The notes beneath the pieces were generated by a model. It saw nothing but the letters and a program-made list of their open reading frames with translations, searched no databases and was not told the origin of the DNA. A program made the translations under genes and the position numbers. This document shows, piece after piece, positions 21,565-40,654 of a DNA stretch of 64,000 bases. The first letter of the stretch is position 1. Every line of letters starts with the position of its first letter. Origin of the DNA: Pseudomonadota bacterium (GTDB taxonomy: Bacteria; Bdellovibrionota_B; Oligoflexia; Silvanigrellales; Silvanigrellaceae); assembly GCA_009926615.1 (NCBI GenBank), contig RFOM01000014.1:74-64073 (forward strand). The letters run 5' to 3'.

Positions 21565-21575
21565 AAATTTTTCCT

Positions 21576-24676: not shown

Positions 24677-24729
24677 TCGCATCAAAACACTCTGAAATTT
24701 TGGAACCTTGGGAAAAGTGAATTTCGGGC

Positions 24730-24760: not shown

Positions 24761-24836
24761 CGTGATCCGGTAACGAGACAAGTTCCTGAAACCAAGTCAA
24801 CTCAAAACTACAATTGAAATTGAACCATGAGAAAAC

Positions 24837-25214
24837 TCAGCGAGGTTTCAAAATTTCAACATAGCTTTTGCGATAGGCCCACCCGAGAAAAAGTCCCATC
24901 ACCAGAAGAGTCACTGCAAGCGAAACCGGTGGCGACAGAAAAAAGTGAAACAGATTAATCTGCACAATGACGGGCGCAATCACAACCAGCGCCAGTGGAA
25001 CAAAGAATCCCGTCACCAGAGCTATGCCACACGAAATTTCACAGACCTTGAGCACAGGAAAAAAATAGCCCGTCTTGAGAAGAGCTGAAATGTATTCGCC
25101 GGCGATTCCCTGCGGTGGCGGCTGCGGGGGCAGAAATTCGTAAAAATAGTTGATGCCGAAAACCACAAAAATCAATCCGAGGATGATTCTGACTGCTTTA
25201 GTTGCTTTTACCAT
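24837..25214 (-). CDS. Small 4-TM membrane protein, DoxX-like
   Basis: 125 aa with four hydrophobic segments (IILGLIFVVFG, GIALVTGFFVPLALVVIAPVIV). Resemblance to the DoxX family is tentative. Confidence 0.5.
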   Translation of the reverse strand: MVKATKAVRIILGLIFVVFGINYFYEFLPPQPPPQGIAGEYISALLKTGYFFPVLKVCEISCGIALVTGFFVPLALVVIAPVIVQINLFHFFLSPPVSLAVTLLVMGLFLGWAYRKSYVEILKPR

Positions 25215-25270
25215 TTTCGCCTCAATAAAAGGTGACGGAACGTGTCCGAAAACATCCCGCCAAGGGTTTT

Positions 25271-26449
25271 TCAGAATTCGACGGTCAATTCAACCTTGCC
25301 GAAAACGTTGTCGGAAAATCCAACATCGCTTGTATTGTTCTGGGCAAGTGTTGCGTCGATGGATGTGTTTCCAAACTTGAGACCTGCACCCAAAAGCGGA
25401 GCGCCGAGACCTTTAACGAAATTCGTCTTCGACGTCGTGTTTGAAATCGATGCTCCCGACTGATTGACATCAGAGTAAACCGTCGTTGTTGCTTTAATGT
25501 TGTCGTAAAGCATCGCCTGAAATCCTGCCCGCAAAACCGACCATGATGAGGATGAATATTCGAGCCCGTTGGACCAACCGACGTTGACGTCAGTGGTCTC
25601 TTTCTTCTGCTTGCTTACGTTGTCAGTTGTTTTGCTCCATCCAACCCATGCTCTGCTGAAGAGAGTTGCGGCGTCGGTGAGTTTGTCGTCACGTTGGGCG
25701 CCGGTGTAAACTGAAATCAATTTGTTGAGATTGTCTTGTTTTGTGGTTGCAGCAGCCTTCTTGTCCCAGAAGCCTGCTTTGGTTTTGCTCTGTGCAATCG
25801 CAACAAACCAACGGTTTTTTTCAATTTTGTGAATAACAGAAAGGTTCAATTGATCGGTGGTCTGATCCGACATTCCATCATCGAGCGTGACGGTTGCATC
25901 TCCGGCAAGGCCACGCTGCGTGGATGTGGTTGCAAGCTTCCAGTCATTGCGATTAAAATTCAGTGAGACTTGCGTCGGTCCACTGATTATACCCCACCCC
26001 AATCCTAATTTTCTAAAGCTGAACCCAAAAGGAAAAACGCCGTCCGGACCCGAAATCTTGCTGTCCTGATAGTTGACTCTTAAACCATACTTGTCATCAC
26101 CAAAGAGCGTTCCCAGAGTCAGTCGCAATGGAAATCCCGACGCTGCCAGAGCAGTGTTTGCAGAAGTAATGTCTTTGCTGCTTCCATCCAGAGGAACGAC
26201 AAGTGTCGACTTCAGTGTGTTCACCTGCACAGCAAGGCCGTAGCTACCTGTATTTGCGATGGCCTGCAGACTTCCCTCTTTGCCGATTCGCAAGTAGCTT
26301 TTGTTCTCGCGCGTGTTCACAAAAGCCGGATTTTCATCCATGTTGTCGAAAATGTCACGGGTTGAATCTGCAAGCGGGCTTGTTGCGGTAGATGCAAATG
26401 CCGTTGTTGGAAATAAAATAAGAGCGACGTAGCCGATGACTTTTTTCAT
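25271..26449 (-). CDS. Outer-membrane beta-barrel protein (porin-like)
   Basis: Signal peptide MKKVIGYVALILFPTTAFA (ATG 26449). Amphipathic beta-strand pattern throughout. C-terminal ...GKVELTVEF with a terminal Phe. Confidence 0.65.
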   Translation of the reverse strand: MKKVIGYVALILFPTTAFASTATSPLADSTRDIFDNMDENPAFVNTRENKSYLRIGKEGSLQAIANTGSYGLAVQVNTLKSTLVVPLDGSSKDITSANTALAASGFPLRLTLGTLFGDDKYGLRVNYQDSKISGPDGVFPFGFSFRKLGLGWGIISGPTQVSLNFNRNDWKLATTSTQRGLAGDATVTLDDGMSDQTTDQLNLSVIHKIEKNRWFVAIAQSKTKAGFWDKKAAATTKQDNLNKLISVYTGAQRDDKLTDAATLFSRAWVGWSKTTDNVSKQKKETTDVNVGWSNGLEYSSSSWSVLRAGFQAMLYDNIKATTTVYSDVNQSGASISNTTSKTNFVKGLGAPLLGAGLKFGNTSIDATLAQNNTSDVGFSDNVFGKVELTVEF

Positions 26450-26508
26450 GATTCGATCCTGTTTGTTTGCGTGCGAAAAGAAAAACGCATTCAAAAATCC
26501 GTCGGGCC

Positions 26509-26540
26509 AAAAAAAATGGGACAGGCGTCAATCCTGTCCC
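26509..26540 (-). terminator. Rho-independent terminator downstream of the cupin gene
   Basis: Stem GGGACAGG (26518-26525) / CCTGTCCC (26533-26540). The minus-strand transcript is followed by AUUUUUUUU (plus-strand A8 at 26509-26516). Confidence 0.7.
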
Positions 26541-26565
26541 TCATTGGATTCAGAAGAAATCCATC

Positions 26566-27003
26566 TTATTTCTTGGCCGTTTTTCCGGGAATGTAGTCAG
26601 TCTTGGCGTCGGAAACAGTCAGAATAACGCAGTCAGCGCCTTCCTTGCACTTGTCGTTGTGGTCGTTCTTACCCGGCTGCATCACGTAGGAGCCGGCAGG
26701 GAGTTCGACGGGAGTTTGGCCGTTTTCCCAGTGAATCCATGTGCCCGAGATCAAAACACCATGGTAAGCAGCTGTGTGAGAGTGCATGCCAGCCTCGAAT
26801 CCGGCAGGAAGCTTAAGGTAACGGCCGTGAGCGCCCTTGTATTGGTCACCCCAAAGATTCACTGTCTTGAGGGGAGTGCCTTGAACATCTTGCCACTTGA
26901 GATCGGCGAAAGATGTCACTTGCAGTTTCTTGTCTTTTGCAAAAGCAGAGGCGGAAGCGACAATCGAAACAGCTGCGGCGCAAACGAAAAGCTTCGAGAA
27001 CAT
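26566..27003 (-). CDS. Exported cupin-domain protein (DUF4437-like)
   Basis: Signal peptide MFSKLFVCAAAVSIVASASAFA. Cupin-type GMHSHTAAYHGVLISG...VELPAGSY. Confidence 0.6.
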   Translation of the reverse strand: MFSKLFVCAAAVSIVASASAFAKDKKLQVTSFADLKWQDVQGTPLKTVNLWGDQYKGAHGRYLKLPAGFEAGMHSHTAAYHGVLISGTWIHWENGQTPVELPAGSYVMQPGKNDHNDKCKEGADCVILTVSDAKTDYIPGKTAKK

Positions 27004-27309
27004 GTAGAACCTCCATGAAACGTTTGACTGTGAAAAAATCCCTTATACGTTTGGTAAATTCGGATTCAAGATCAAGTTTATGGTGTCAACTAAGTGACGC
27101 GAATCAGGTGAAGAAGATTTTTAAACTCTTTCTTGTGCCTTCGAAGAGCGAACAGGTGTTTATTTTACGTTTCTGAGTGAAGAGTCATGACACACCCCGC
27201 GATCCTGCTTCGTGTGCCGCCGGAATGATGTTGTCGCGCAATTTTTCAATCATAATGCCGCCAAGACATCGCTGTTTTAACTGCATTTTACCTAATCAAT
27301 TCAGTATCT

Positions 27310-27326
27310 TTACAAAACATTACAAA
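27310..27326 (+). promoter_or_regulatory. Direct repeat TTACAAA-N3-TTACAAA (candidate OmpR-family response-regulator site)
   Basis: Two TTACAAA heptamers start exactly 10 nt apart (27310 and 27320), about 115 nt upstream of the CpxP-like/RR/HK genes. Confidence 0.3.
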
Positions 27327-27440
27327 GCATCACCGTGTGGTAATTCTATTTTTCCCGGAATCGACGAAGAGAACAACAGGAAGGCTGATTCGGACGCAGC
27401 ATCCGGCCTTTAAAAACCTCGTCCGAGTTTGGGAGTCTCT

Positions 27441-27887
27441 ATGTTTGCGAGAAGATCAATTCGTCGTCTTGTTGCCTGCCTCGGTATCGCGTTGGGAAGT
27501 ACGGGAATGGTGGCCTGTAATCACCACGGAAAGAACCATGGCGAACGTGCCGATTGGGTTGCAAAACGAGTTTCCGGCTATCTGGATTTCACCGCAACTC
27601 AAAATCAAAAGCTCGATGTTGTGAAAACCAAGGTCAAAGATCTGTTTCAGGCGCTCGATTCGAAGCGCGACGCTGCAAGATCCATTTTGCGTGAGGAGGT
27701 GGCAAAAGAAAAAATGGATTCGGCCCGACTAAATCAGAGCCTGCAGGCGAATTTGTCGGTCCTGAGTGAAAAATTGCCGGCAATCGTTGATGCTGTTGTT
27801 GAGTTGCACTCTTCGTTGAACCCTGCGCAACGCTCCAAGGTTGCCGAGAAGGTGCAGAAGTTTGAAGGCCGTCATAAGGGCAAATGA
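27441..27887 (+). CDS. Periplasmic CpxP/Spy-family (LTxxQ-type) protein, lipoprotein
   Basis: Signal sequence with GMVAC lipobox. Helical protein with FTATQ and LNPAQ (LTxxQ-like) motifs. Sits immediately upstream of a two-component pair. GGGAG RBS before ATG 27441. Confidence 0.6.
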   Translation: MFARRSIRRLVACLGIALGSTGMVACNHHGKNHGERADWVAKRVSGYLDFTATQNQKLDVVKTKVKDLFQALDSKRDAARSILREEVAKEKMDSARLNQSLQANLSVLSEKLPAIVDAVVELHSSLNPAQRSKVAEKVQKFEGRHKGK

Positions 27888-27900
27888 ACAGGGAGATGCG

Positions 27901-28641
27901 ATGAACAAGGGAGGCGCGCCGGAGACTTCAGCTCAGGTCGTGTGGATCGTTGATGATGACCCGAAGCTCGGCGCACTTCTTTGCGAATATCTGGCGAATT
28001 TCAATTTCAAGACTGTCTATTTTTCAGATCCCGCGGCTGCACTGTCGGCATTCGAGGCAGGAGACGGCAAGTCTAGGCAACCCGATCTCATTGTGTCGGA
28101 CGTCATGATGCCAGTCATGGATGGATTGGCGTTGATGAAGAGAATCCGCGCAGGCAGCTCAGTTCCCATTGTCTTGCTGACGGCCAGAGGCGACCTGACG
28201 GACAAGGTCCTCGGTTTGGAGATGGGTGCCGATGACTATCTTGCGAAACCGTTTGAACCGCGTGAACTGGTCGCACGGGTTCAGTCCATTCTGCGCAGGG
28301 CTGCCGATTTGACTCAACGCAAACGGATCTTCCGGTTTAGCGACATCGAGATCGATATTTCGACGCATGGCGTTGTCGTGGACGGAAGCTCTGTATTGTT
28401 GACCTCTACGGAATTCGAGGTTCTCGCGCAGCTTGTCACAAACGCAGGACATATTGTCAGCAGGGATACTTTGATAGAGCAGACGCGCGGCATTGAATGG
28501 GAGAGCTACAATCGCTCGATCGATGTCATGATCTCCAAGCTCCGGACCAAATTGAAATGTGATCCTCAAAATCCCCGCTTTATAAAAACAATTCGTGGTG
28601 CGGGTTACATGTTCATTGCGCAGCGGCGCGAGGGACAATGA
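27901..28641 (+). CDS. OmpR/PhoB-family response regulator
   Basis: REC domain (VWIVDDD, DLIVSDVMMP, LLTARGD). Winged-helix output (LTSTEFEVLAQL...TIRGAGYMF). Confidence 0.9.
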   Translation: MNKGGAPETSAQVVWIVDDDPKLGALLCEYLANFNFKTVYFSDPAAALSAFEAGDGKSRQPDLIVSDVMMPVMDGLALMKRIRAGSSVPIVLLTARGDLTDKVLGLEMGADDYLAKPFEPRELVARVQSILRRAADLTQRKRIFRFSDIEIDISTHGVVVDGSSVLLTSTEFEVLAQLVTNAGHIVSRDTLIEQTRGIEWESYNRSIDVMISKLRTKLKCDPQNPRFIKTIRGAGYMFIAQRREGQ

Positions 28642-28642
28642 G

Positions 28643-30011
28643 ATGTCAGAACCCTTGAAAAGCAAATCTTTTGTCATCCGGCAGAGTCTTTTTCGACGCA
28701 TCCTTATCCTGATGACTCTTGCAGCCGTCGCAATCGGTGTCATCGTGGTCGGTCTTTTCAGGATGTCCACACAACGTCGGCTTGAATCACGATACAACAT
28801 TGCTCTCAGGAACATTGGCATCTACGCGAAGGGAGTCAGTGCAGAGCTGGATCATTTCAAAGATTCTGAACTTCAAGATGCTGTCGAACGACTTTTGCAG
28901 GAGCGTGGATTCCTGACACGTGTGCGGCTTCCGGATGGTAGGTATGTCGAGTCGAAAGTTCAGCGAACCGACGATATTTTCAGTAACGCTGAAACGATTG
29001 ATTCATGGCTCTGGCGAAAAGAAGGAACCAAGTTTGCTTTCGTCAAAGGTCGACCCGTGCTGTCGGTCGCAGGTCAATCTTTTCACGGCAATCGCGAATA
29101 TCTATTCACGATGGAGCGTCCCGACTCCATCGATTTCGACGAGCGCATCCTCGTTCTGGGGATTGCCCTGCCTCTTCTTGTCATAGGATTGCTCTATCAG
29201 GGAGTTCGCCGGATGCTCCTCCCGCTCAAGACTCTCCAACAGGGTGTGGAGAGTGTTTCACAGGGGAACCTCGCAGTCCAACTGGATGACTCGGGCCATG
29301 ATGAGCTGGCCGTGCTGGCAAATTCATTCAACCGGATGACTTTTGAATTGAAGCGCATGATGGCCTCCCGTGAAGAATTGCTTCTGGGTGTGAGTCACGA
29401 ATTGCGAACACCGCTCACACGTGCCCCGCAAACTGCAGCTCGGTGAAGATTTTCGCGAAATGTCTTTGCTTGTCGATGAACTTCTTGAATTTGGAAGGTT
29501 GCGCGGCGGTTTGAAGCTCGATACCGAAGTGATTTCAGTTCGTGAAGTATTGCGATGGTCGCAGGAGATTGCAGGGGCTCTGCCCGAGTTCCAGTCTGAA
29601 AATGGAATTATTGCAGTTGTCGGGCATGGAGAGATCCTCGAAAAGTCTTTGAAGGTGGACAGATTGCGTGTTGTTCGCATCATCCGCAATCTGCTTGAAA
29701 ATGCAGCTCGCTATGCAACAAGGCCTGAAGATCAACTTCGAATGGACGTTGGCGCACAGATAGAGGCTGAGCAGGTTGTTTTTTTCTTTCGCGACAATGG
29801 CAAGGGAATTCCGGAATCCGACTGCGAACGAATTTTTGAGCCTTTTTCACGCATAGAGTCATCGCGTTCACGCAAGTATGGAGGGCTGGGGTTGGGATTG
29901 TCGTTGGCCCGCTCCATTGCCGAAGCCCACGGCGGCTCGCTCATGCTCACACGCTATTCACCCGCAGGAGCCGAATTCAGGCTGAGCCTTCCGCTCGCAA
30001 GCCAAGATTGA
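28643..30011 (+). pseudogene. Sensor histidine kinase interrupted by a +1 frameshift just after the H-box
   Basis: ORF 28643..29446 carries TM, HAMP and the H-box SHELRTPLTR, then stops after 8 aa. ORF 29421..30011 in the +1 frame continues with LQLGEDF... and the HATPase_c N/G boxes (RNLLENAARYA, DNGKGIPE, GGLGLGLS). The switch lies at GTGCCCCGC (29421-29429). Confidence 0.75.
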
Positions 30012-30134
30012 TGCTTCACATATTCAGTCTTGCAGGGAAATGAAATGAAAATTTGACTGTCATTCTCTCGGGCTGTTTCAATTTTCAATATTGGGTTGTT
30101 AGAATCCACGCATGCCAAATTCAGGGAGCATTTC

Positions 30135-30686
30135 ATGTCCGAGCGCAAGATTGTCGTCCTGTTTTTTCATCCCAATTTGAAGACCTCCAAAGTCGGAAGT
30201 GCGCTGAGCGAGACCGCTGCAAGAATTCCGGGGGTTTTGTTCAGAGATATGTACGGGATCTATCCTGATTACTTGATTGACGTCAAACGGGAACAGCAGA
30301 TTGCCGAAGCACATGATCTGATCGTTTTTCAGCATCCTGTCTACTGGTATTCGTGTCCGCCGCTGATGAAATTGTGGATTGATGAAGTTCTCGAATACGG
30401 CTGGGCATACGGCAGCGGCGGAAACAAATTACACGGCAAACAGATGCTGAATGCGGTCAGTGCCGGCGGTTCGAGTGAGGCATACAGCAGCGCAGGAAGC
30501 AACCGTTTTGAAATCTCGACGTTCTTTACTCCATTCAATCAAACTGCGCATTTGTGTGGAATGAAATATGCCAATCCGCACGTTCTCTTTGGTGCGCGCG
30601 GACTCTCGCAAGCTGAAATTGAAAGCGAATGTCATTCCTACGAAAACCTTCTTCAAAACTACATCCGCACGGGAGAGCTGCCATGA
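30135..30686 (+). CDS. KefF/KefG-type flavodoxin-like NAD(P)H oxidoreductase (K+ efflux ancillary protein)
   Basis: KIVVLFFHPNLKTSKV...DLIVFQHPVYWYSCPPLMKLWIDEV is typical of KefF/KefG. The stop overlaps the kefC-like start (ATGA). Confidence 0.8.
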   Translation: MSERKIVVLFFHPNLKTSKVGSALSETAARIPGVLFRDMYGIYPDYLIDVKREQQIAEAHDLIVFQHPVYWYSCPPLMKLWIDEVLEYGWAYGSGGNKLHGKQMLNAVSAGGSSEAYSSAGSNRFEISTFFTPFNQTAHLCGMKYANPHVLFGARGLSQAEIESECHSYENLLQNYIRTGELP

Positions 30687-32512
30687 GTGGAGTGAATTTG
30701 CTTGGAACCATTGCAGCTCTTTTGGCGGCGGGCGTGGTCAGTGTTCCGGTGGCAAAGCGTCTTGGCTTGGGAAGTGTTCTCGGCTATCTCGTGGCAGGAG
30801 CGGTGATTGGACCATACTGTCTCAAGCTGCTGACAAACTCAGACGACGTTTTGCATGTTGCCGAGTTCGGCGTCGTGATGTTGCTCTTTTTAGTGGGCCT
30901 TGAACTCGAACCAAAGCGCTTGTGGTCATTGCGCAAAAGCATTTTTGGCCTCGGCACACTGCAGGTGATTTTGTGTGCGGCTGTGATCGCTCTTGTCACG
31001 AGATCATACACCGGATGGAATCTTTCAGCTGCGACTGTGGCGGGTCTGGGTTTCGCCATGAGTTCGACTGCCATTGTCTTGCAGATACTTGCGGAGCGCG
31101 GCCTGACGCAGACAGCGTTGGGCAAGGATTCATTTGCTGTACTTCTTTTTCAGGATTTGGCAGTCATCCCGATTTTGGCCATCCTTCCTTTGCTTGGCAC
31201 CGAGCAACAGAATTCCGTAACTGGTCCTGCAGCCATGTCTCCAGTCTTACGCTCGATAGCGGCGGTCGGCATCATTCTGGGTTTGATTTTGTTCAGTCGA
31301 ACACTTGTCCGTCCGCTCTTTCACTGGGTCGCCAAAACGCGTCAAAAGGAAATCTTCACCGCTCTGTCCTTGTTGATAGTCGTGGGGATCGCCATTCTCA
31401 TGGACAGCATTGGTTTGTCGATGGCATTGGGAACATTCCTTGCCGGAGTCGTACTCGCGGAGTCCGAATACCGGCATGAACTTCAAAGCAATGTCGAACC
31501 GTTCAAAGGGCTTCTACTCGGGATATTTTTTACGGCTGTCGGCAGCTCGATGAATTTTTCGATTTTTTCGGCAAAGCCGCTTCAAATTCTGATGACCGTC
31601 TTTTTGCTGCTGATCAGCAAAATTATCATTCTGAAAATATGTGCAAAGTTGTTTAACCACCAGTCGCGCAATTCTTGGTTGTTTTCGTTGTTGCTGTCGC
31701 AGGGCGGTGAGTTTGCCTTTGTGTTGTTCACCACAGCCCGTGGTTTGGGTGCGCTCAGCGCCGACCAGTCCGCCGAATTGACGTTGGTCGTTGCACTATC
31801 GATGTTCACTACACCCTTTTTGTTGAAGGCGACTGAACGATGGTTGCGGGAGAAACCGGCCGGCAAGAGGAAGGAAGCTGACGCGTTTGACTCCGCGCAT
31901 GATCCGGTAATTATTGCGGGAATGGGACGGTTCGGACAAATTGTGGTTCGACTGCTTCATTCTCAGTCGATCCGCGCCACGGTCATTGATTTCAGTCCCG
32001 ATCTTCTGGAACTTGTCCGTCCGTTTGGACTCAAGGTTTATTACGGAGATGCAACTGATTTGGCAGTCCTTGAAGCTGCCGGCATTGAGCACGCAAAGGT
32101 TCTGGTTCTTGCTATCGATGATGTGAAGGGTTGTTTGCGTGCAGCCGAGCAAGTGCGCAAACACTACCCGCATGTTCGGGTCTTGGTTCGCGCCCGCGAT
32201 ATGACTCATCTGCACGAGATCCATAAATTGGGGATCACCGACACCGAGCGGGAGACTTTCAGTGCGGCACTTGCGCTGGGTGAGAAAGCTCTTTTGGCGC
32301 TGGGATTTCACCCCCATACGGCACGAAAGAGGAGCAAGATTTTTCATCAATATGATTTGGAGGTCATTAGTAAAATGCAGCATCTTTGGGATGACAGGGC
32401 TACATATGCCTCGTCGGCCAAAAAGGCTCGCGAAGAACTGGAGCGTATTTTTGCGGAGGATCAAAAGAATCTTAATCACGGTGGTGCTGACACTGCATGG
32501 GTGGTCAAATAA
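30683..32512 (+). CDS. kefC: Glutathione-regulated K+ efflux system protein KefC/KefB (CPA2 antiporter plus RCK/TrkA-N domain)
   Basis: About 12 TM segments in the CPA2 domain (GSVLGYLVAGAVIGP). C-terminal Rossmann VIIAGMGRFGQ. Coupled to the KefF/G-like gene. Confidence 0.85.
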   Translation: MSGVNLLGTIAALLAAGVVSVPVAKRLGLGSVLGYLVAGAVIGPYCLKLLTNSDDVLHVAEFGVVMLLFLVGLELEPKRLWSLRKSIFGLGTLQVILCAAVIALVTRSYTGWNLSAATVAGLGFAMSSTAIVLQILAERGLTQTALGKDSFAVLLFQDLAVIPILAILPLLGTEQQNSVTGPAAMSPVLRSIAAVGIILGLILFSRTLVRPLFHWVAKTRQKEIFTALSLLIVVGIAILMDSIGLSMALGTFLAGVVLAESEYRHELQSNVEPFKGLLLGIFFTAVGSSMNFSIFSAKPLQILMTVFLLLISKIIILKICAKLFNHQSRNSWLFSLLLSQGGEFAFVLFTTARGLGALSADQSAELTLVVALSMFTTPFLLKATERWLREKPAGKRKEADAFDSAHDPVIIAGMGRFGQIVVRLLHSQSIRATVIDFSPDLLELVRPFGLKVYYGDATDLAVLEAAGIEHAKVLVLAIDDVKGCLRAAEQVRKHYPHVRVLVRARDMTHLHEIHKLGITDTERETFSAALALGEKALLALGFHPHTARKRSKIFHQYDLEVISKMQHLWDDRATYASSAKKAREELERIFAEDQKNLNHGGADTAWVVK

Positions 32513-32577
32513 CCAATACGACCGCTCAATGGCAGCGATGCGGGAAAAAAAGCACGCAGAATAAATCTCAGTCGTTC

Positions 32578-32817
32578 TTACTTCAACTTCCATCTGCAAA
32601 TGTATTCAATTCGCGGAAAGCAAAATCCAATGGCCTCGTTCTTTGTCGTCTTCACAACCGATCCGCAACCGCTTAAGACGTATTTTTTGTTATTTGCCGT
32701 CACTTCGCATTTTCCGTTCTTTCCTTTTATAACGGGGTTCGCATCAGCCTCGGGCGCATAAGCAACCAGCGCCATGTTTACAAAAAAAATTGACACAAAA
32801 AACGCAGTAATCTTCAT
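32578..32817 (-). CDS. Small exported Cys-containing protein
   Basis: ATG 32817 gives MKITAFFVSIFFVNMALVAYA, a signal peptide, followed by a ~55-aa mature part with 4 Cys. Lies 119 nt downstream of the rhodopsin gene on the same strand. Confidence 0.4.
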   Translation of the reverse strand: MKITAFFVSIFFVNMALVAYAPEADANPVIKGKNGKCEVTANNKKYVLSGCGSVVKTTKNEAIGFCFPRIEYICRWKLK

Positions 32818-32936
32818 AAAAAAACCCCTGTTGCTGTGAACTGCGAAACTCCGGACTACCGAAACCTGAGGCGAACGAACGTGAAACAGACGAAAGTCCG
32901 AGCGCGCGGCATTCAGACTTTCCGTGGATGACAACT

Positions 32937-33653
32937 TCACTCATCACTTCGGGACAATGAGTAGATCACAAGACCGAAGCCAATTTTGTTGATGGCATCA
33001 GCGATGTTGTAAACTATATCCATCGCTTTTCCCGCAGCTGCAGCATCTGAAACAAGCTGCATTCCCAACAATCCACCCGGAGTGCCAAGAATGTAACCGA
33101 GCGGATAAACAGCCCATCCCACCAACACAAACCACGCCAGAATTCTCGTCGCTTTGGCAACCTGCGGGCCGGCCGACTGCGCCAGATTCGCAACTTCGCC
33201 GAACCATATGAGATATACAATGTAGAAGTACGCAATCGATGACAGCACTCCCCACAGCACACTGCTGCTCCGGTACACCGTTTCACCCAGGTACCCCGTG
33301 ACAAGCATGACGACTGAAGCTGCAATGAGTCGCCACAACAATCCTATCTTCGCACCGGCCTTCTTGGTGATCAGATAGAACTCGACGCACATGAGCGGCA
33401 CTGTCAACAACCAATCCACATAACGAAAGAAAGTCGGAGAATCTCCGGTCTGAAGATTGTAGCCGCGCATGTAGTAGTAATGCACCGCGGCAATAAACGT
33501 GATCAATCCGGAAACCAGCACGGACGTTTGCCACTTCTTCGGCGTGTTTCCGACCTCGAAAAAGAAAAAGACTGAAGCAGCCATCATGGCCATCGTACCA
33601 ATGAAAAATGTAAACGCGACGTAATTGTCGCTGGCAATCTTTAACGCTTCCAT
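32937..33653 (-). CDS. Proteorhodopsin-type microbial rhodopsin (DTE motif, predicted outward H+ pump)
   Basis: 7-TM protein. HYYYMRGYNLQTGDSPTFFRYVDWLLTVPLMCVEFYLI aligns with green PR HYMYMRGVWIETGDSPTVFRYIDWLLTVPLLICEFYLI. YNIADAINKIGFGL carries the Schiff-base Lys (PR YNLADFVNKILFGL). Confidence 0.9.
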   Translation of the reverse strand: MEALKIASDNYVAFTFFIGTMAMMAASVFFFFEVGNTPKKWQTSVLVSGLITFIAAVHYYYMRGYNLQTGDSPTFFRYVDWLLTVPLMCVEFYLITKKAGAKIGLLWRLIAASVVMLVTGYLGETVYRSSSVLWGVLSSIAYFYIVYLIWFGEVANLAQSAGPQVAKATRILAWFVLVGWAVYPLGYILGTPGGLLGMQLVSDAAAAGKAMDIVYNIADAINKIGFGLVIYSLSRSDE

Positions 33654-33975
33654 CCGTCACCCCCTGTTTTGGTCTTATTGATGGTGGTCGACGTATGCTG
33701 TGCAAACTTGAGTTATATCGAAAATTGATTCAATTATCATATATTATCGACTAATTAGGCGCGCCACGATTCTACAGCTTTAAACTAAGGTTGTTGGCAA
33801 AATAATAGTTTTCGCCGCTTTTTCGCCAGTCAAACGGAGAATGCCGGCCGTGAAGGGAGCATTCTCAAGTCGGGTATTTTTTGCATGAAAGCAGCTTTCA
33901 GAACGATTTATCACAAATTTTCTATTGAAGCTGATGAAAATCAAGGCTAGCCGAGTTTTCAGAGAGGGCCGGAAT

Positions 33976-35004
33976 ATGAAAAAGTCATTCTTCACAAACA
34001 ATGCTTTAAAAATTTTAATCGCCACGCTTCTGATTCAAAACTCAGTCCACCCGTGCGCAACAGCAAGTCTGATTGAAAATCTTTCCCTGCAAAGCCGGCA
34101 GTCGAACCAATACACACGGTCAATAGCAGACCTCGCGGCCGATGCGAAGACTGTCGTGGATGCGGGAATCAAAGAGTTTAACGCTGAAACCCTTCCGCAT
34201 GAGGCTAAAGATCTCCGCAAACAAATTGTCCGCATGCGCGATATTATGGATATATTTTCTCACAATTTTGCGCACGAAACTGACCTTTGGGACGATGTCC
34301 GCGACGGTTTGGATGACGGATATACCGTCGTTGGAGATTTTAAGGACCTCTTTGACACAAATCCGCAAGCTGTCGAAAGTTTATCCGCCGGAAAAGAACC
34401 CAAGTATAAGGATGAAAAGAAACTGAAGGAGCGGCGAAAGAAGGTCCTCCGTTGGAAGAGTCATTATTTTGCAGAGGGCGGATTGTCTGAAAAAATATGG
34501 GCCGCTTTCTTCGAAATACGACCGTTAGACTCATCAAATATCGTTCAGTCCAAGAAGTATTCCGACTTCTTTTGGGGCGGCGTAAATCAGCTGCCTCTTG
34601 CTCTGAATTCACCTGCACAGAACGCCCGCATTCTTGTGAATGCACAATCTGATTTGGCTGACGCGGAACACCCTGTCGTGCTTGCGATAAAGGATCCGGG
34701 CACACATGAAAATGAAATTCTCTTCCATAATCACCGCAAACGCCTTCGTACAATTGCAAAGGTCTGCCATGTTGCGAACGCCATGACCAAGCACACCTGT
34801 CGGGGCGATTCGATGAAGGAAATTGAAAACTTGGTTACCGCTTTGGGAGAGATCGAGGATTTGATCATTACCGGCCGGCACCTCGAGGAAGACAAAAAAG
34901 AATCGAAGGCAGAAGTAGCCTACGAAGAAGCGAAGAAAAAATTTAAAAAACTGAAAAAAGAATTCGAAGGAAAAAACATGCTGGAGGCGCTGGATTCTCT
35001 TTAA
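33976..35004 (+). CDS. Exported helical hypothetical protein with Lys/Glu-rich C-terminus
   Basis: Signal-like N-terminus MKKSFFTNNALKILIATLLIQNS. Predicted helical. No confident family; a weak CHAD-like HNHRKRLRTIAKV segment is only an impression. Confidence 0.45.
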   Translation: MKKSFFTNNALKILIATLLIQNSVHPCATASLIENLSLQSRQSNQYTRSIADLAADAKTVVDAGIKEFNAETLPHEAKDLRKQIVRMRDIMDIFSHNFAHETDLWDDVRDGLDDGYTVVGDFKDLFDTNPQAVESLSAGKEPKYKDEKKLKERRKKVLRWKSHYFAEGGLSEKIWAAFFEIRPLDSSNIVQSKKYSDFFWGGVNQLPLALNSPAQNARILVNAQSDLADAEHPVVLAIKDPGTHENEILFHNHRKRLRTIAKVCHVANAMTKHTCRGDSMKEIENLVTALGEIEDLIITGRHLEEDKKESKAEVAYEEAKKKFKKLKKEFEGKNMLEALDSL

Positions 35005-35013
35005 GAGAGCTGC

Positions 35014-35784
35014 TTGCTTTGCTGCACCGTCGTGAAGGAGTTTATTGCATTGAGCTTTCGTCCGACTTTTACCTTTCTCGTGGTTGTTGCGGGTTCCGTA
35101 TGTTTTCCTCTCGCTTCGGGCGCGGCTGCGCAGAACTCATGCACCGCGTCGCGTTGCCGCTCTGAGGCCTCCGACCTCCTATGGTTCGAAGAGAATTCGA
35201 GAGCAGAGGCGGTGTGGTCTCCTTTCGGAGTTTCACACCGCGGTGCGAAACAACTTAGAAATTGGATTCAGACAGCAAAGCAGGGGCAAAAAATTCCGGA
35301 TTTCACAAACTCTTTGAGTCTGAACTGTTGGGAGTACGTTCTCTACACGGGACTGCGACTTGGCGAGCTTGATCTGGAAGCTGTTAATGCTTTGTACCGC
35401 AAGAGAGCCGCTGGCGAAAAGCTCTCGGAAAATTTCGGTCAGCCAGTTGGCAGCGCACGCTATATAATCAGAAGTTCGTCTGTCAAAGTCACATGGCCTC
35501 GCGAGATCGAAGCCGGCGACGCAGTTTTTATGGATGAAACAAGCCACGTGGTACAGCTTCTGGGTTCACGCGATGAAATTGGCAGAGAACGTGTCGTCAG
35601 CTTCAGTCCCCGCCCGATTTGGGGTGACGGCTCGCAGGAAGTGCCTGTTCCGAACATGCGCCCCGAAGTCACAACGGTCGAGTCTCTCGTTGAGGAAATG
35701 ATTAGACTATACCCTGATGTTCCGACAGACTGGCAAGACATTGAACTCAAAATTGTTCGGCCACCGGCGAAGAAACATAAGTAA
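35014..35784 (+). CDS. Exported hypothetical protein, possible papain-like Cys/His hydrolase fold
   Basis: Hydrophobic N-terminus FTFLVVVAGSVCFPLASGAAA. Candidate nucleophile context LNCWEYVLY and downstream His SHVVQLLG. Speculative. Confidence 0.4.
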   Translation: MLCCTVVKEFIALSFRPTFTFLVVVAGSVCFPLASGAAAQNSCTASRCRSEASDLLWFEENSRAEAVWSPFGVSHRGAKQLRNWIQTAKQGQKIPDFTNSLSLNCWEYVLYTGLRLGELDLEAVNALYRKRAAGEKLSENFGQPVGSARYIIRSSSVKVTWPREIEAGDAVFMDETSHVVQLLGSRDEIGRERVVSFSPRPIWGDGSQEVPVPNMRPEVTTVESLVEEMIRLYPDVPTDWQDIELKIVRPPAKKHK

Positions 35785-35885
35785 AAAAGAATTTTCAACT
35801 TCATCCATGTCTGCGCGGTTTTCAAGAAAGCAATTGCAGTTTCCCTCGAGGCCTGACACTTCTGAATGGCCGTTCCGGAAGATTC

Positions 35886-37574
35886 TCACCGAGAGAATCG
35901 CTCTTTTTTTCCATCGACGGGCAGGATGCAAACAACAGTACTGACAGGCTTCGCCTCTCCACCGTCCGGCCAATGGCTGGTCAGTCCAATGCCAGCTTTG
36001 GCATATGAACCTTCACCGGGATGCTGCACACTTAACAGCAGTCCAGAGCCGTCAGGCAGGAAGGTGGGACCCGTCAGTTCGGCATCACGCGGCGCCTGAA
36101 TAAAATGTCTGGCAAAAACACTGCCTGCAATGTCAGTCTCAAGCCGAAACATCGAGTTTCGGCCAAACGAACTCAATGCCCCCTTGCCCATCGCCGGAGC
36201 GCTCATGTCTGTGCAGGCCCAAAGCAAATTGCCCGGGCCGAACGTCAGATTGTCGGGACATGACATTCCGGTCCGTATACCTCCTGTCGCAAAAGTCTGG
36301 AAAGAAAATCTTTTCTCTCCGGCATCACCATTGTTCTCACGCAGCAAGTTCACAGACCCGTAAATATCTCCCGCATCCGCATTGTTTGTGAGCGCAAAAT
36401 AAACATCACCATTGGAAGGATCGATCTTAATGTCTTCCGGCCTGTTCAATTTGGTACCGCCCGCAAGCTTTGCCGCCTCACGCGTGTTGATCAAAATTCC
36501 AGACAGATTTTTAAATCTGTCATCTTTTGCCAAGTTCGGATTTTCCGGACTGAGGTGAATCCATTCCCCTTTGCTGAAGTTGGCAACATAAAGATCTCCA
36601 TCAACGAGCAAATCTGTGTCTCTCACCGGATCGCCTGTGACTCTTCCCTTTGATACGAATTTGTAAATGCACTGACCTTTTGCATCGTCGCCAAGATAGA
36701 CAACAACATTGCCGGCCTTTGATTTCGTCAGGGTTGCGCCCTCGTGGGCAAACCGTCCAAGTGCAGTCAATTTGCGCGCACTCTGTGTTGCCGGATTCAC
36801 TTCAACGACCCAGCCGTAATCCTCCTCGGAGCGCGGATATTGAATTCCCCAGCCGTAGTATGAATGAAACGTGCCCTCGTTTTCTTTGAAATAAACATCA
36901 TAGTTTTCCTCAGCGGTCAGAATTGTTCCCCAAGGCGTAAAACCGCCGGAGCAATTGGCGAGGGTTCCAAGAACAGTTCTCCCGCCCGCAGGCCCGACAA
37001 GCGGAATTGGAGTGTTTGCATCCAGCCGAAAGGCAAGCTGAGAATCTGATTTGACCTGCCAACGCTGACTGCCGTCCTTTTGTTTTACCTTTAAAAGCTC
37101 AACGTAACTTCCACCGACAAGCTTCATTTCTGCATCAATTTGTTCTTTACTTTTCTCGGTGGGACTCAGAATTTTTCCGTAGAGAACGTTGTCCAAGAGA
37201 TATTCATGATTGACCCAGAGAAATGCCTGACCCGAGGTTTGACCGCGCATGAAATGAAGAAAATCACAGCAGTCACCCGCTCTGTCGCCCCGTGAGTTGA
37301 TAACATCACCTGTTCTCAGCAAAGGATACCATGTGAATCCCTCGGCCACTGAAAGCTCATCCCGAGCTGAGTAACCCAGCGGGCGAAACGCCTTTTTGCG
37401 CCGCGGATCGCCGAATCCCATTCTCATTTCTTCGGACATCAGATTTGCTGCATGAGCACGAGGGTCATCCGAAAGGCTTTTACTTCCTGCTGCAAATGCC
37501 TCAGAGCGTTCGATAGCTGAAGCGAACGTGGCCAAAATGCCTGATGTGATAAAATTTCTGCGGTTAATTGTCAT
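35886..37574 (-). CDS. phoX: PhoX-family alkaline phosphatase (DUF839), Tat-exported
   Basis: Twin-arginine leader MTINRRNFITSGILATFASA. PhoX-like blocks NRPEDIKIDPSNGDVYFALTNN and TFLPDGSGLLLSVQHPGEG. Confidence 0.8.
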   Translation of the reverse strand: MTINRRNFITSGILATFASAIERSEAFAAGSKSLSDDPRAHAANLMSEEMRMGFGDPRRKKAFRPLGYSARDELSVAEGFTWYPLLRTGDVINSRGDRAGDCCDFLHFMRGQTSGQAFLWVNHEYLLDNVLYGKILSPTEKSKEQIDAEMKLVGGSYVELLKVKQKDGSQRWQVKSDSQLAFRLDANTPIPLVGPAGGRTVLGTLANCSGGFTPWGTILTAEENYDVYFKENEGTFHSYYGWGIQYPRSEEDYGWVVEVNPATQSARKLTALGRFAHEGATLTKSKAGNVVVYLGDDAKGQCIYKFVSKGRVTGDPVRDTDLLVDGDLYVANFSKGEWIHLSPENPNLAKDDRFKNLSGILINTREAAKLAGGTKLNRPEDIKIDPSNGDVYFALTNNADAGDIYGSVNLLRENNGDAGEKRFSFQTFATGGIRTGMSCPDNLTFGPGNLLWACTDMSAPAMGKGALSSFGRNSMFRLETDIAGSVFARHFIQAPRDAELTGPTFLPDGSGLLLSVQHPGEGSYAKAGIGLTSHWPDGGEAKPVSTVVCILPVDGKKERFSR

Positions 37575-37630
37575 CGCCTGATCCCTCCAGAGTGCGATTA
37601 TCAGGGCGTAAATCGCTAAATTCGCGATTG

Positions 37631-37661
37631 TTGTGAATTGGATATTGTGATGAATTTGTGA
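37631..37661. promoter_or_regulatory. Three direct TTGTGA hexamers in the phoX / 37777(+) divergent intergenic region
   Basis: TTGTGA at 37631, 37645 and 37656 (start-to-start spacing 14 and 11 nt). Reads TCACAA toward phoX. Confidence 0.3.
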
Positions 37662-37776
37662 GGTTTCAATGGATCACATGAAGGCCGGCTCCAAGTCGTG
37701 CGGCCCCCTTTGCGACATTCACCTTATTATGCTAAACACATAAGCAAATTCAGTCCAACTTTGAGGGATACCCGAA

Positions 37777-38520
37777 ATGTTTAGGCCATCAGCGACTTCA
37801 ATTTGTGCAGGAGTGGCTCTGAGCTTTTCAACCGTTCCCTTGCCGGCAAACGCCGGCGAAAATTCCATCTTCGTATCAAAAGATCAAGTGCTGAGACGAA
37901 GCTTTGATCTTCCGCAAGGAAACTTCGTTGTTGAAACCATGTGGACAACTGCTGCGCAAACAGCGGGTGAGGTTGACGTGCTCTCGGGGCGTGTAAGCTT
38001 TAGGGCAAAACTTGGCAATCCATCCGGCATCTGCACGAATATCAGTTTTATTCAGACTGCGCGCATTCTCGACAACAAAGGAAACGACTACCAGTGGCCG
38101 GCAGGGCAGTCGGTCCGAAATCAAATCAGAACAAAGCGCACTGCGAATAATGTTGAACAGGGATATTTTGTTGACCACGATGCAACACAATGCGCGGAAC
38201 GAAGTTCCGAATGTTCGCCCTTCTTCCGCGATCACTGGCCCAATTCAGATTTGGGATCCCAAGACGGCTCCCTTGAGGCAGAGAAACAAAAAGCAGCGGT
38301 CTTGGTCGATTTCCCTTATGGTTGGGAACTCATAACTTCGGCGGAACTTGAAACCTGTGCGGTATGCCGTGATACGAAAAAGACATTCGGATGCGTCACT
38401 TGGGGAGGCACTTGGCCACTGACGGGAGAGCGCTTTCTTCACGGTCCGAAGGCGACAAACAGCCCGACTACGACGTTTGAAAAAGCACTCTCCCTGTTCC
38501 AATCGTTTTATTCCGAATAG
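37777..38520 (+). CDS. Exported hypothetical protein
   Basis: Signal peptide MFRPSATSICAGVALSFSTVPLPANA. Several Cys pairs. No family recognised. Confidence 0.5.
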   Translation: MFRPSATSICAGVALSFSTVPLPANAGENSIFVSKDQVLRRSFDLPQGNFVVETMWTTAAQTAGEVDVLSGRVSFRAKLGNPSGICTNISFIQTARILDNKGNDYQWPAGQSVRNQIRTKRTANNVEQGYFVDHDATQCAERSSECSPFFRDHWPNSDLGSQDGSLEAEKQKAAVLVDFPYGWELITSAELETCAVCRDTKKTFGCVTWGGTWPLTGERFLHGPKATNSPTTTFEKALSLFQSFYSE

Positions 38521-38527
38521 GCTGGAA

Positions 38528-40312
38528 TTACCGCTCAATATTGCCAAGATCCGAGTTTACCGAGACACTTGAGGTTGCATTCGTGAAGCGAACAAGCAAA
38601 AAGTGCCTTGTCGCTTTGTCCCACGTGTTTTCCGTGCTGGCGCGGGACAACCAAATCTCCCGCATTTGTGTTGCATTCCTTGGCCATCTTCTCCAAACAT
38701 TGACCGACGGTCGCAGTGCTTTCAACTCAACTGCATTGTTCAGTTTCATCCATGTCCAAAAGGAATCCAAATCCTGCTGAGAGGTGAAAACAAGCCATTG
38801 CCCCTTCAAACCCGCTGCCATTAAATCTGCATGAGTGTTTGAGAAATGGGTAGAAACTCCCAACATGTACGCCATCATCCCCCATTCGTTGAAGTTTTCC
38901 CTCCTCGTGTTGTCGTAATTGAGCGGCGCCCTGTGCTCGGACAATAATTCCCGAGCGTCACTCAGCTCTGACTCACCCAAGGTCGCTGTCAGGCCAAGAG
39001 TCCCGAACCAAAAAAATACCAAGCCGGACAACATTGCAGTCGCACGGCTGACCAAACGACCTCTGGAAATAACTGACTCAAAAGAAACAACTGACAAAAT
39101 AAACGAAGTCAGAAGAGCCAACGTATGGCCTGAAGTCCACCATGGGGCGCCACCGAAGAACGCAAAATGGCAGCCGGCAACCGCCAAAATCATCAGCATC
39201 GAAAATGGCAAAACAACTTTGGCGAAAATTCCGGCATACCCGCGAATCGCCTGCAGCTGACCAACCAGCAATACAATGATTGCAGGAATCATCGGTAAAC
39301 CGTACCACGGCGCCCTGTAGCCCAACCCGAAAAAAAACAGAAACGTCGGCAACAAAAATGCGAGAGACAATGCCGAGCTGCGGTCGAACTGCAGTATTCC
39401 CTTGCGCATGCGCCGGTAGGCAATAAGGCAGCAAGGAACTACCAGAAAGCTCCACGGCGCCAAGTTCACGAAAAAATTATTAAACAAAAAAACGAAGGCG
39501 GAATCTGAAAAGCGCGGCCGATCAAACTGTTCTCTGAAGATATAAGTCTTAAACCAATTTTCACGGTCCAAAAAAAACGGCAAAACATATCCTGCGGCGG
39601 TCAGACACACTCCCGCGAACAAGGAGAGAATTTTCCGAGAGGAACCGAACAGACTCCTGATTGACGGCTTTCCGAATGAGAAATATGCAACAACCGATAT
39701 CCCAAGCAAACAACTGTGCAATGGCGATTTAAGAGTTCCGGCGAAACCAACCGTGAGCCAGAGCAACAAAAAATATCCGGTTGCTCCGGTGTATCGCGCC
39801 GCAACGGCAAGCGACATTGTAATTGCGTAAAGGCTTGTCAGAGCGCTGTCCATCTGACTTGAAAAGGTAAACATGACGAGCGCGCCTGAGGTTGCGAAAA
39901 GCAGTCCGGCGAGTCCCATCAACCGGCTCTGTGCAGGAAGCAAAAATTCCGATGACAACCTGAGTGCAGTCACTGCGCAGGCACCGAGAATCAGGTTCAT
40001 ATAAGTGATCGATAAGGGTGAGAATCCAAAAAGATGATGTCCGATGATCAGCAGTAGATAATGACTCGGGCCTTTTATGTAATTGACGTCCCCAAACTGA
40101 AGCTGTTGCCACAAATGACCGGCCCGAACCATTTCCAAAGCCTGTGCGACATAGACCTTTTCGTCGCCGTGAATTCTAATATGCCGCCAGAATGCGAATG
40201 GCAGTGTCAGCAGGAAAAACACGATTCCGTGCTGCCAGAAATTCAGCTTTCGCCATATATCTCCGGCTTCCGGGAACTTCACTGAATAAAGTGCAGAATT
40301 TTTGCCGAGCAT
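38528..40312 (-). CDS. GT39/ArnT-like (PMT_2) membrane glycosyltransferase
   Basis: Polytopic 594-aa protein. First-loop acidic motif HGDEKVYVAQALEM. Many TM segments and a soluble C-terminal domain. Confidence 0.7.
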   Translation of the reverse strand: MLGKNSALYSVKFPEAGDIWRKLNFWQHGIVFFLLTLPFAFWRHIRIHGDEKVYVAQALEMVRAGHLWQQLQFGDVNYIKGPSHYLLLIIGHHLFGFSPLSITYMNLILGACAVTALRLSSEFLLPAQSRLMGLAGLLFATSGALVMFTFSSQMDSALTSLYAITMSLAVAARYTGATGYFLLLWLTVGFAGTLKSPLHSCLLGISVVAYFSFGKPSIRSLFGSSRKILSLFAGVCLTAAGYVLPFFLDRENWFKTYIFREQFDRPRFSDSAFVFLFNNFFVNLAPWSFLVVPCCLIAYRRMRKGILQFDRSSALSLAFLLPTFLFFFGLGYRAPWYGLPMIPAIIVLLVGQLQAIRGYAGIFAKVVLPFSMLMILAVAGCHFAFFGGAPWWTSGHTLALLTSFILSVVSFESVISRGRLVSRATAMLSGLVFFWFGTLGLTATLGESELSDARELLSEHRAPLNYDNTRRENFNEWGMMAYMLGVSTHFSNTHADLMAAGLKGQWLVFTSQQDLDSFWTWMKLNNAVELKALRPSVNVWRRWPRNATQMREIWLSRASTENTWDKATRHFLLVRFTNATSSVSVNSDLGNIER

Positions 40313-40321
40313 AACGTCTCC

Positions 40322-40573
40322 CTACGGAGGACCAAACTCATCAACCACCGTAAAAATATCCAGAAATCGGGTGTCAATCCTGTGAAAACCTAATGAGAGC
40401 AAAGACTCACTTTTGACCCAAAAAATTTTCAAAAGTTTCGAAATGAAATGGTTTGCGGACATCTGGCGATAAAATTGCTCCAAAAGACGTTCCACTTCAC
40501 GCCTGAGTGACTGGCGCATAATTGGACTATGGCAAAACCCAATACCCTCCGGACTTTCCAAAGTTTTGTTCAT
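40322..40573 (-). CDS. Small hypothetical protein (uncertain)
   Basis: 83-aa ORF ending 9 nt upstream of the GT39 start. No motif. May be non-coding. Confidence 0.25.
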   Translation of the reverse strand: MNKTLESPEGIGFCHSPIMRQSLRREVERLLEQFYRQMSANHFISKLLKIFWVKSESLLSLGFHRIDTRFLDIFTVVDEFGPP

Positions 40574-40654
40574 CTAATTGAACGCTTACGAATTATACTC
40601 ATCTTTGAGAACGGCATTCCGATCTCCGATCTGCACGAAGGAGAAGGAGTCAGT

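Follow-up and report, generated by a model that had tools for sequence, protein, structure and literature searches.

How does a bacterium of the family Silvanigrellaceae come to carry a proteorhodopsin gene with no gene for making its chromophore nearby, and what would the protein do for such a host? The question is raised by a 64,000-nucleotide stretch of contig RFOM01000014.1 (assembly GCA_009926615.1), here called the window, in which the minus strand at positions 32937–33653 encodes a predicted rhodopsin. The best explanation, at a probability of about 80%, is that this gene specifies a green-absorbing, outward-pumping proteorhodopsin (PR) of the Bacteroidota type, that it lies in a freshwater Silvanigrellaceae chromosome, and that it was acquired horizontally, with the opsin standing alone at its locus.

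Identity and Family of the Rhodopsin

32937–33653, minus strand: rhodopsin coding sequence, 238 amino acids plus stop; proteorhodopsin family, Bacteroidota-type clade

A six-frame list of open reading frames (ORFs) contains exactly this interval as an ATG-initiated ORF of 238 amino acids. The predicted protein matches Pfam family PF01036 (Bac_rhodopsin) over profile positions 4–220 of 224 (E-value 6.8e-43, 147 bits, cutoff 24.6), and both the full-length seven-helix domain and the helix G Schiff-base lysine of a type I rhodopsin are present. No NCBIfam model matched it. When all PDB chains were compared with the protein, the top matches were proteorhodopsins, led at 1e-85 by 9JOV/9JOU, which are structures of NM-R1 from the flavobacterium Nonlabens marinus S1-08 with myxol or zeaxanthin bound (bioRxiv 10.1101/2024.11.08.622755). 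These were followed by 4JQ6 (3e-51), the green PR chains 7B03/8CNK/2L6X (about 1e-49) and the blue PR chains 4KLY/4KNF (about 2e-44). Xanthorhodopsins (XRs), Kin4B8, ESR, chloride pumps and bacteriorhodopsins matched much more weakly (1e-32 to 1e-13), and flotillin-associated rhodopsins, ESR, xanthorhodopsins and others reached 1e-36 at best, against 1e-85 to 2e-44 for the PR chains. The protein is 62% identical to NM-R1 over 226 residues, 43% to green proteorhodopsin (GPR) and 45% to 4JQ6. No other rhodopsin family is as close to it in sequence as the PRs, and its best matches lie outside the XR family. Of the 161 alignment columns conserved at 95% or more in a set of 119 homologues, it agrees with 160, the exception being Q42, in a loop.

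At the level of sequence, these comparisons confirm a real, intact microbial rhodopsin of the proteorhodopsin family. The first-pass annotation of this DNA, made by a model from the letters and their translations, had described the protein as aligning closely with green proteorhodopsin. That description holds for the motifs discussed below but plays down the affinity to Bacteroidota-type PRs, which are nearer, identity to GPR being only about 43%.

Functional Residues and Predicted Pumping

33381–33425, minus strand: helix C motif RYVDWLLTVPLMCVE, with R77, the proton acceptor D80, T84, the tuning site M88 and the proton donor E91, placed by alignments and a codon check
33480–33482, minus strand: His58, equivalent to PR His75; His in 118 of 119 homologues
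33249–33251, minus strand: Gly135, equivalent to NM-R1 Gly142 and to the "fenestration" position, XR Gly156
32985–32999, minus strand: helix G motif DAINK, with D219 (D227 equivalent) and the Schiff-base lysine K223 (K231 equivalent)

Residue equivalences were taken from a MAFFT alignment of the window protein with NM-R1, GPR, 4JQ6 and the 119 best database homologues. H58, R77, D80, T84, M88, E91, D219 and K223 align with PR H75, R94, D97, T101, position 105, E108, D227 and K231, respectively. The Asp-Thr-Glu (DTE) set of a proton pump is therefore complete in D80, T84 and E91, and it is joined by the His partner H58 and the R77/D219 counterion complex. K223 is invariant across the 119 homologues. 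Position 105 is Met in the window protein, in NM-R1 and in every one of the 119 homologues, while GPR has Leu and 4JQ6 has Gln. Flavobacterial PRs with Met at this position are green-absorbing. The alignment bears out what the first-pass annotation had proposed: the three DTE residues, a His75 equivalent, Met at the tuning site and the D227 and K231 equivalents. That annotation had also raised the possibility that the Asp, Thr, Glu and Lys were misregistered, and the alignment and codon coordinates agree that the register is correct.

Since the DTE/His/Arg/Asp/Lys set is complete, the tuning residue is Met and identity to the characterised pump NM-R1 is 62%, the window protein is predicted to be a green-absorbing, outward proton pump. 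In the proposed mechanism, all-trans-retinal would be bound at Lys223, and light would drive a proton from the Schiff base to Asp80, which is paired with His58. The Schiff base would then be reprotonated from Glu91, and the pumping would supplement the proton-motive force of a heterotrophic host.

A different function for the gene, as a sensory rhodopsin, a Na+ or Cl- pump, or an XR-family pump like Kin4B8, has some points in its favor. Several homologues are named "sensory rhodopsin" by JGI, and the one characterised rhodopsin of Bdellovibrionota, Kin4B8, is a xanthorhodopsin. Yet the helix C motif is DTE, with a carboxylate donor at Glu91, rather than the NDQ or NTQ of Na+ and Cl- pumps or the donor-less sensory type, and no transducer-like gene occurs among the adjoining neighbours (kefC, a small secreted ORF and proteins without a Pfam match). 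PRs also match at 1e-85 to 1e-44, compared with 2.5e-21 for Kin4B8 (7YTB), 1.9e-24 for 3DDL and 4.9e-27 for 6NWD in the XR family, and about 1e-16 for chloride-pump chains. Such a function is thus highly improbable, and an outward proton pump is preferred.

Another feature of the protein concerns carotenoids. As described in the Kin4B8 report (bioRxiv 10.1101/2022.08.24.505090) and in the NM-R1 study (bioRxiv 10.1101/2024.11.08.622755), the fenestration at XR Gly156 is where a carotenoid ring can touch the retinal ring. This Gly is present in the window protein, in NM-R1 and in 119 of 119 homologues, and is replaced by Phe in GPR and Trp in 4JQ6. With both Met-105 and Gly at XR position 156, the window protein has the signature of the "fenestrated" Bacteroidota PR clade. 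In the Kin4B8 study, carotenoid binding was assayed with fenestrated PRs of Dokdonia and of a freshwater flavobacterium, and NM-R1 binds zeaxanthin and myxol (bioRxiv 10.1101/2024.11.08.622755). Gly135 would leave a carotenoid window in the protein studied here, and with it a possible use of a hydroxylated-carotenoid antenna, but several of the ring contacts of NM-R1 differ.

The Host Lineage

30096–32512, plus strand: kefF (Flavodoxin_2) and kefC (CPA2 K+/H+ antiporter), convergent with the rhodopsin gene; host-lineage anchor

Two proteins encoded in the window place its host. Obg has homologues at 99, 95 and 90% identity in freshwater metagenome-assembled genomes (MAGs), the first of them on a 254-kb contig, and it is 72–73% identical to the proteins of Fluviispira multicolorata and F. 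vulneris, 71% to that of Pigmentibacter and 67% to that of a "Bdellovibrionota bacterium" MAG. Identity then falls to about 56% (Nostoc), and no named bacterium outside Bdellovibrionota exceeds 57%. The KefC protein shares 76% identity with its counterpart in an NCBI "Silvanigrellaceae bacterium" MAG, and the kefF-kefC pair is common to both. Further contigs of the window's lineage occur in JGI 3300035703 and in SRR11566518. By lineage lookup, Silvanigrellaceae belong to Silvanigrellales, Oligoflexia, Bdellovibrionota. The family is known for pigmented freshwater isolates and for animal-associated or pathogenic members, rather than for obligate predators (PMC12321486; PMC7308576). An initial low-confidence guess at a predator-like lineage was right at the level of the phylum, as Obg and KefC point to Silvanigrellaceae.

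Probable Horizontal Origin of the Opsin

33657–33666, minus strand: Shine-Dalgarno-like leader CAGGGGGTGA, 4–13 nucleotides before the ATG

Rhodopsin transfer between phyla is commonplace, and the relatives of the window protein point to another phylum as its source. Thousands of relatives are 82–93% identical to it. The best 80 loci in GTDB species representatives, at 82–88% identity, are nearly all labelled Bacteroidota, and their labels include Flavobacteriales, Chitinophagaceae, Sphingobacteriales, Saprospiraceae and Crocinitomicaceae. Among the matches listed in a metagenome scan, relatives were at most 87% identical and no further contig of the host lineage was found. A neighbor-joining (NJ) tree of 95 sequences, built with Kimura distances and 200 replicates and weak at its deep nodes, has a clade of 92 sequences that includes the window protein and leaves out NM-R1, GPR and 4JQ6. 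In this tree, by NJ only and with those weak deep nodes, the protein groups with Bacteroidota PRs. Within the clade it belongs to a subclade of six, the other members being P0002, P0003/L088, P0004, P0005/L086 and P0006/L084 (P and L numbers denote related proteins and loci); the nested supports are 179, 175 and 159 of 200.

The leader of the gene is a second line of evidence. The sequence AAACAGG(A/G)GG precedes the rhodopsin genes of the window, L088 and L084, and among about 166 related loci a Shine-Dalgarno (SD)-like rhodopsin leader occurs only in the window's subclade and in L115 and L135. SD usage is a coarse test that separates Bacteroidota from non-Bacteroidota. By this test 11 of 20 genes on the L084 contig and 6 of 8 on the L086 contig have an SD, as do 16 of 18 and 17 of 19 genes in the Silvanigrellaceae loci L091 and L092; the Bacteroidota-like locus L089 has none in 11. 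The rhodopsin gene has a GC (guanine plus cytosine) content of 50.3%, against 50.5% for the window, and donor-type loci mostly have 30–45%. A transfer into the host lineage is not recent, because the GC content of the gene equals that of the host and its SD leader is of the host type. Apart from the rhodopsin, tblastx found nothing shared between L084, L086 or L088 and the window or the Silvanigrellaceae loci.

In the presumed donor pool the opsin is usually found with a partner. A single ORF of about 655–670 amino acids, combining Lycopene_cycl and BCD domains (a fused crtY-blh), directly adjoins the rhodopsin gene in 54 of 86 loci, with partial matches in 9 more, and a fused crtY-blh stands beside the rhodopsin in 49 of 80 metagenome loci. 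Examples lie at 10817–12802 of L011, 7846–9810 of L084 and 10785–12794 of L089. The literature searched yielded no description of such a single-ORF fusion. In L084 (GCA_027488515.1, a 743-kb contig with a GC content of 54%), crtE-crtI-crtB and crtY-blh all adjoin the opsin. Two of these loci also contain traces of mobile DNA. A crtE-like ORF of L084 (4218–5540) has an N-terminal integrase arm-type DNA-binding domain (Arm-DNA-bind_3), and in L089 the DNA just upstream of the rhodopsin-crtY-blh pair (1196–8797) encodes DNA methylases, a phage integrase and a resolvase. Such features are a hint that mobile islands carry the cassette.

In the proposed history, the opsin would have entered an SD-using lineage by horizontal transfer from the Bacteroidota pool, where it is usually paired with the fused crtY-blh. 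As L084 carries crtE-crtI-crtB and crtY-blh beside its opsin, opsin and crtY-blh probably left the pool together, and the window's lineage would later have kept, or received, the opsin alone. Since then its base composition and ribosome-binding site would have come to resemble those of the host, and the gene is kept under strong purifying selection.

Maintenance in the Host

The protein encoded in the window occurs, identical in sequence, in three other assemblies, one from JGI (L001) and two from Logan (L002 and L003). L001 and L002 have the same neighbours on both flanks, and L003 is a 1-kb contig without flanks. Over 13.7 kb (window positions 29932–43650), L001 is 96.1% identical in DNA, and it is therefore a sister strain rather than the same assembly. 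The two rhodopsin genes differ at 34 nucleotides. One of these differences is in the start codon, the other 33 are synonymous, and the encoded proteins are identical; synonymous divergence (dS) is 0.23 and nonsynonymous divergence (dN) about 0. Because 33 synonymous changes have accumulated without an amino-acid change, the rhodopsin is evidently maintained under strong purifying selection.

Could the locus be an artefact, in which the rhodopsin of a co-occurring Bacteroidota genome was joined to a Silvanigrellaceae contig during assembly or binning? All the named close relatives are indeed Bacteroidota, and implausible MAG labels such as Bifidobacterium, Synechococcus and Methylotenera indicate that the gene does get mis-binned or mislabelled. 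But JGI and Logan assemblies of other samples contain the identical protein, joined to its flanks in the same way on either side, and the L001 strain differs by about 4% in DNA over the 13.7 kb that span the gene. Moreover, the gene has the GC content of the host and an SD-like leader, which the Bacteroidota copies lack. A chimera is exceedingly improbable, and a resident chromosomal gene is preferred. As for the odd labels themselves, five MAGs with a Bacteroidota-type rhodopsin (L008, L023, L029, L038 and L065) are labelled Bifidobacterium, Synechococcus, Methylotenera, Competibacteraceae or Polynucleobacter, and their contigs are probably mis-binned or mislabelled, since their rhodopsin leaders have no SD.

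It is also conceivable that the gene is an inert relic, that is, an opsin that arrived without crtY-blh, finds no retinal and survives as a non-functional or decaying apoprotein. The usual crtY-blh partner is absent, no retinal gene lies in the 64 kb, and neighbouring genes show signs of decay (a split histidine kinase and a split AAA_14/DUF4143 gene, described below). This explanation is very unlikely, however, in view of the 33 synonymous and 0 amino-acid changes against the sister strain at a dS of 0.23, a pattern with a probability of about 1e-22 if changes fell at random over site classes (a crude calculation). Nor is there damage to the ORF, its start codon or the SD-like leader, and 160 of 161 conserved columns are matched. 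In addition, rhodopsins work in bacteria without known retinal genes (PMC7734400; Rhodoluna lacicola with external retinal). A selected, working gene is thus the better account.

Divergence from L001 is mosaic across window positions 29932–43650. The dS of 0.23 in the rhodopsin and 0.18 in kefC compares with only 0–0.05 in the five genes on the far side of the rhodopsin (hyp359, hyp256, PhoX, hyp247 and hyp594), which suggests recombination near the rhodopsin.

Source of the Retinal

A working pump would need retinal, and here the window is silent. From it 60 non-overlapping ORFs were chosen, and the 50 largest, together with the rhodopsin, were scanned against Pfam. The 50 gave no match to BCD (Blh/Brp), Lycopene_cycl, SQS_PSY, phytoene-desaturase-type Amino_oxidase, polyprenyl_synt or RPE65. 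Six-frame tblastn of the 64 kb with CrtE, CrtI, CrtB and two CrtY-Blh proteins from related loci reached a best E-value of 0.64. Both searches uphold the initial observation that the 64 kb hold no retinal-synthesis genes. The window rhodopsin is accordingly not part of a PR plus crtY-blh cassette, as PF15461 is absent not only beside the opsin but from the entire window.

One way to supply the chromophore would be a self-sufficient photosystem, with crtY and blh (or a fused crtY-blh) and crtE, crtB and crtI elsewhere in the genome, the absence being an effect of window size. Phytoene synthase and desaturase genes, along with lycopene production, are reported for Silvanigrellales, and neither a cyclase nor a cleavage enzyme is mentioned (PMC12321486), so that the published pathway both provides the first steps and ends at lycopene. 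Within the subclade, L084 has crtE-crtI-crtB and crtY-blh beside its rhodopsin, and about one-third of related loci likewise have no adjoining crtY-blh. Strong purifying selection would imply a dependable chromophore supply. Set against the lack of any retinal gene in 64 kb, these points give self-sufficiency about an even chance. It is compatible with the best explanation given at the outset, from which it differs solely in naming the source of the retinal.

A second way would be uptake from outside the cell. In this case the lineage would have no lycopene cyclase or beta-carotene cleavage enzyme anywhere in its genome, and retinal, possibly with a xanthophyll antenna, would be scavenged from prey, hosts or lake water. 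Both outcomes have precedents: the Rhodoluna lacicola rhodopsin pumps only with added retinal, and in Aurantimicrobium minutum retinal is produced although no gene known to make it is present (PMC7734400). Scavenging in this full form is doubtful, although conceivable. As to the source of retinal alone, crtY/blh elsewhere in the genome is slightly more likely than a supply from outside. If scavenging were true, it would amount to chromophore piracy instead of synthesis, practiced with an opsin of Bacteroidota origin under strong purifying selection. Should the rest of the genome also lack crtY and blh, the lineage, which has cultured relatives, would be a freshwater system well suited to studying how bacteria with an opsin alone obtain their chromophore. 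If these genes do occur elsewhere in the genome, the case becomes one of routine horizontal transfer of a rhodopsin.

Whatever the source, three considerations weigh against the proposal of a transferred, working green pump. With no retinal pathway gene in the 64 kb, formation of the holoprotein is presumed. Pumping, the absorption maximum and chromophore loading are all predictions from the gene. Lastly, the direction of transfer, which would run from Bacteroidota to an SD-using lineage, is deduced from taxon counts, SD usage and an NJ tree of close sequences with weak deep support.

The Locus and Its Surroundings

32578–32817, minus strand: small ORF, 79 amino acids, with a signal-peptide-like N-terminus and several Cys, 119 nucleotides downstream of the rhodopsin gene
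33977–35004, plus strand: hypothetical protein, divergent from the rhodopsin gene; 342 amino acids as called in L001, no Pfam family

Beyond kefC, the window runs through the small ORF, the rhodopsin, proteins without a Pfam match, PhoX and two very large LamG/glycine-rich proteins. The first description of the neighbourhood, kefC and secreted hypothetical proteins, agrees with kefF/kefC at 30096–32512 and with flanking ORFs that lack Pfam matches. In four Silvanigrellaceae relatives, whose KefC proteins are 72–87% identical, sucD-sucC comes next after kefF-kefC or one gene further on, and in the two contigs that reach far enough (L091 and L092) groEL-groES comes after that. Homology between these relatives and the window stops exactly at the kefC stop codon, 32512. 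The opsin thus lies at a synteny break in a lineage-specific region. Because synteny ends at that stop codon and the usual crtY-blh partner, found in about two-thirds of related loci, is absent, the locus supports the solitary insertion that the first-pass annotation had envisaged.

The means of insertion was also considered. A transposon- or integrase-borne event was rejected, as the window has no integrase or transposase Pfam match and its only tRNA is 14 kb off. A pair of adjoining, imperfect direct repeats, matching at 20 of 25 and 14 of 16 positions and keeping their order, occurs at 32511–32552 and again at 34105–34174. The two copies bracket the small ORF and the rhodopsin, with the first beginning at the kefC stop codon and the second lying inside the hyp359 coding sequence. 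They could reflect chance or an insertion scar and are too weak to support an insertion mechanism.

The small ORF, called as a gene in both L001 and L002, has no Pfam match and may be co-transcribed with the rhodopsin. The idea that it is a remnant of crtY-blh was rejected, since tblastn detected no similarity to crtY-blh. Upstream, an intergenic region of 323 nucleotides separates the rhodopsin from the ORF at 33977–35004. Consensus promoter and terminator scans around the rhodopsin gave results no better than shuffled sequence, with no minus-strand promoter.

Several other features of the window deserve mention. The histidine kinase beside kefF lies in two frames, a HAMP ORF (28595–29446) and a HATPase_c ORF (29421–30011), and the sister strain L001 (13668–14399) lacks window positions of about 27393–29284. 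The split kinase (28595–30011) has the look of a decaying two-component system, or of a frameshift introduced by sequencing. AAA_14 (20263–21564) and DUF4143 (22590–23303) are encoded by two ORFs with about 1 kb between them; elsewhere a single protein contains both, which in L086 has 472 amino acids and adjoins a rhodopsin. The window's AAA_14/DUF4143 gene may therefore be disrupted. A single tRNA-Ser(GGA) is found at 18787–18876, and the 10-kb stretch at 18000–28000 has a GC content of 47.7–48.4%, compared with about 52% upstream, and is rich in ORFs without Pfam matches. This stretch may be a tRNA-associated island. Finally, adjacent ORFs at 40529–48602 encode proteins of 1538 amino acids, with a C-terminal Laminin_G_3 domain, and 1136 amino acids, with an ALK/LTK glycine-rich domain that is unusual in bacteria. 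The Laminin_G_3 ORF also occurs in L001 and L002, whose contigs end before the 1136-amino-acid ORF.

Significance

The rhodopsin gene is of an ordinary kind, although its host is an uncommon one: Bdellovibrionota rhodopsins and rhodopsins without known retinal genes are already documented. In a lake survey, the opsins of Bdellovibrionota MAGs came to "a very small number", and Kin4B8, a freshwater Bdellovibrionota xanthorhodopsin, has been characterised in depth (bioRxiv 10.1101/2022.08.24.505090). In the literature searched, no paper linked Silvanigrellaceae or Silvanigrellales with rhodopsin. The first-pass annotation had called light-driven energy supplementation noteworthy in such a lineage. 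These precedents weaken that judgement. The locus adds a documented, non-chimeric case of the potential for proteorhodopsin phototrophy in Silvanigrellaceae. It is also a clear example of a photosystem cassette split in cross-phylum transfer, with the opsin kept and tuned to its host and the crtY-blh partner not at the locus.

Comparison with Known Systems

The nearest characterised relative is NM-R1 of Nonlabens marinus S1-08. It shares with the window protein the DTE motif, the His, the Met tuning residue, the fenestration Gly and the Tyr194/Ala188 equivalents. Four of its carotenoid-ring contacts are changed in the window protein (W139V, L143V, M195I and W201G/Y202L), in which the F-G loop is also 7 residues longer. 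The host is of the Silvanigrellaceae instead of Bacteroidota, and the gene has an SD-type leader. Closer in sequence are the freshwater Bacteroidota cassettes of PR and crtY-blh (L011, L016 and L089), whose rhodopsins are 82–88% identical and have functional residues all identical to the window's. They differ in that the window has no adjoining crtY-blh and in that its GC content, leader and neighbours are those of the host. The GPR of SAR86 (7B03, 2L6X) belongs to the same family and has the same H75/D97/T101/E108/D227/K231 motif, at 43% identity, but has Leu at position 105 and Phe at the fenestration site, and for the latter reason has no carotenoid window.

Kin4B8 (7YTB/8I2Z) is a proton pump with a fenestration Gly from the same phylum and habitat as the window rhodopsin. 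It differs in belonging to the xanthorhodopsin family (2.5e-21, against 1e-85 for PRs). As the window opsin is of the PR family and not the XR family, its acquisition would have been independent of that of Kin4B8. A last comparison can be made with Rhodoluna lacicola and Aurantimicrobium minutum KNC, which like the window have an opsin without blh nearby, and in which the rhodopsin works by way of external retinal or an unknown pathway. Both are Actinobacteria with actino- or xanthorhodopsin-like proteins, and there whole genomes were examined, compared with the 64 kb considered here.

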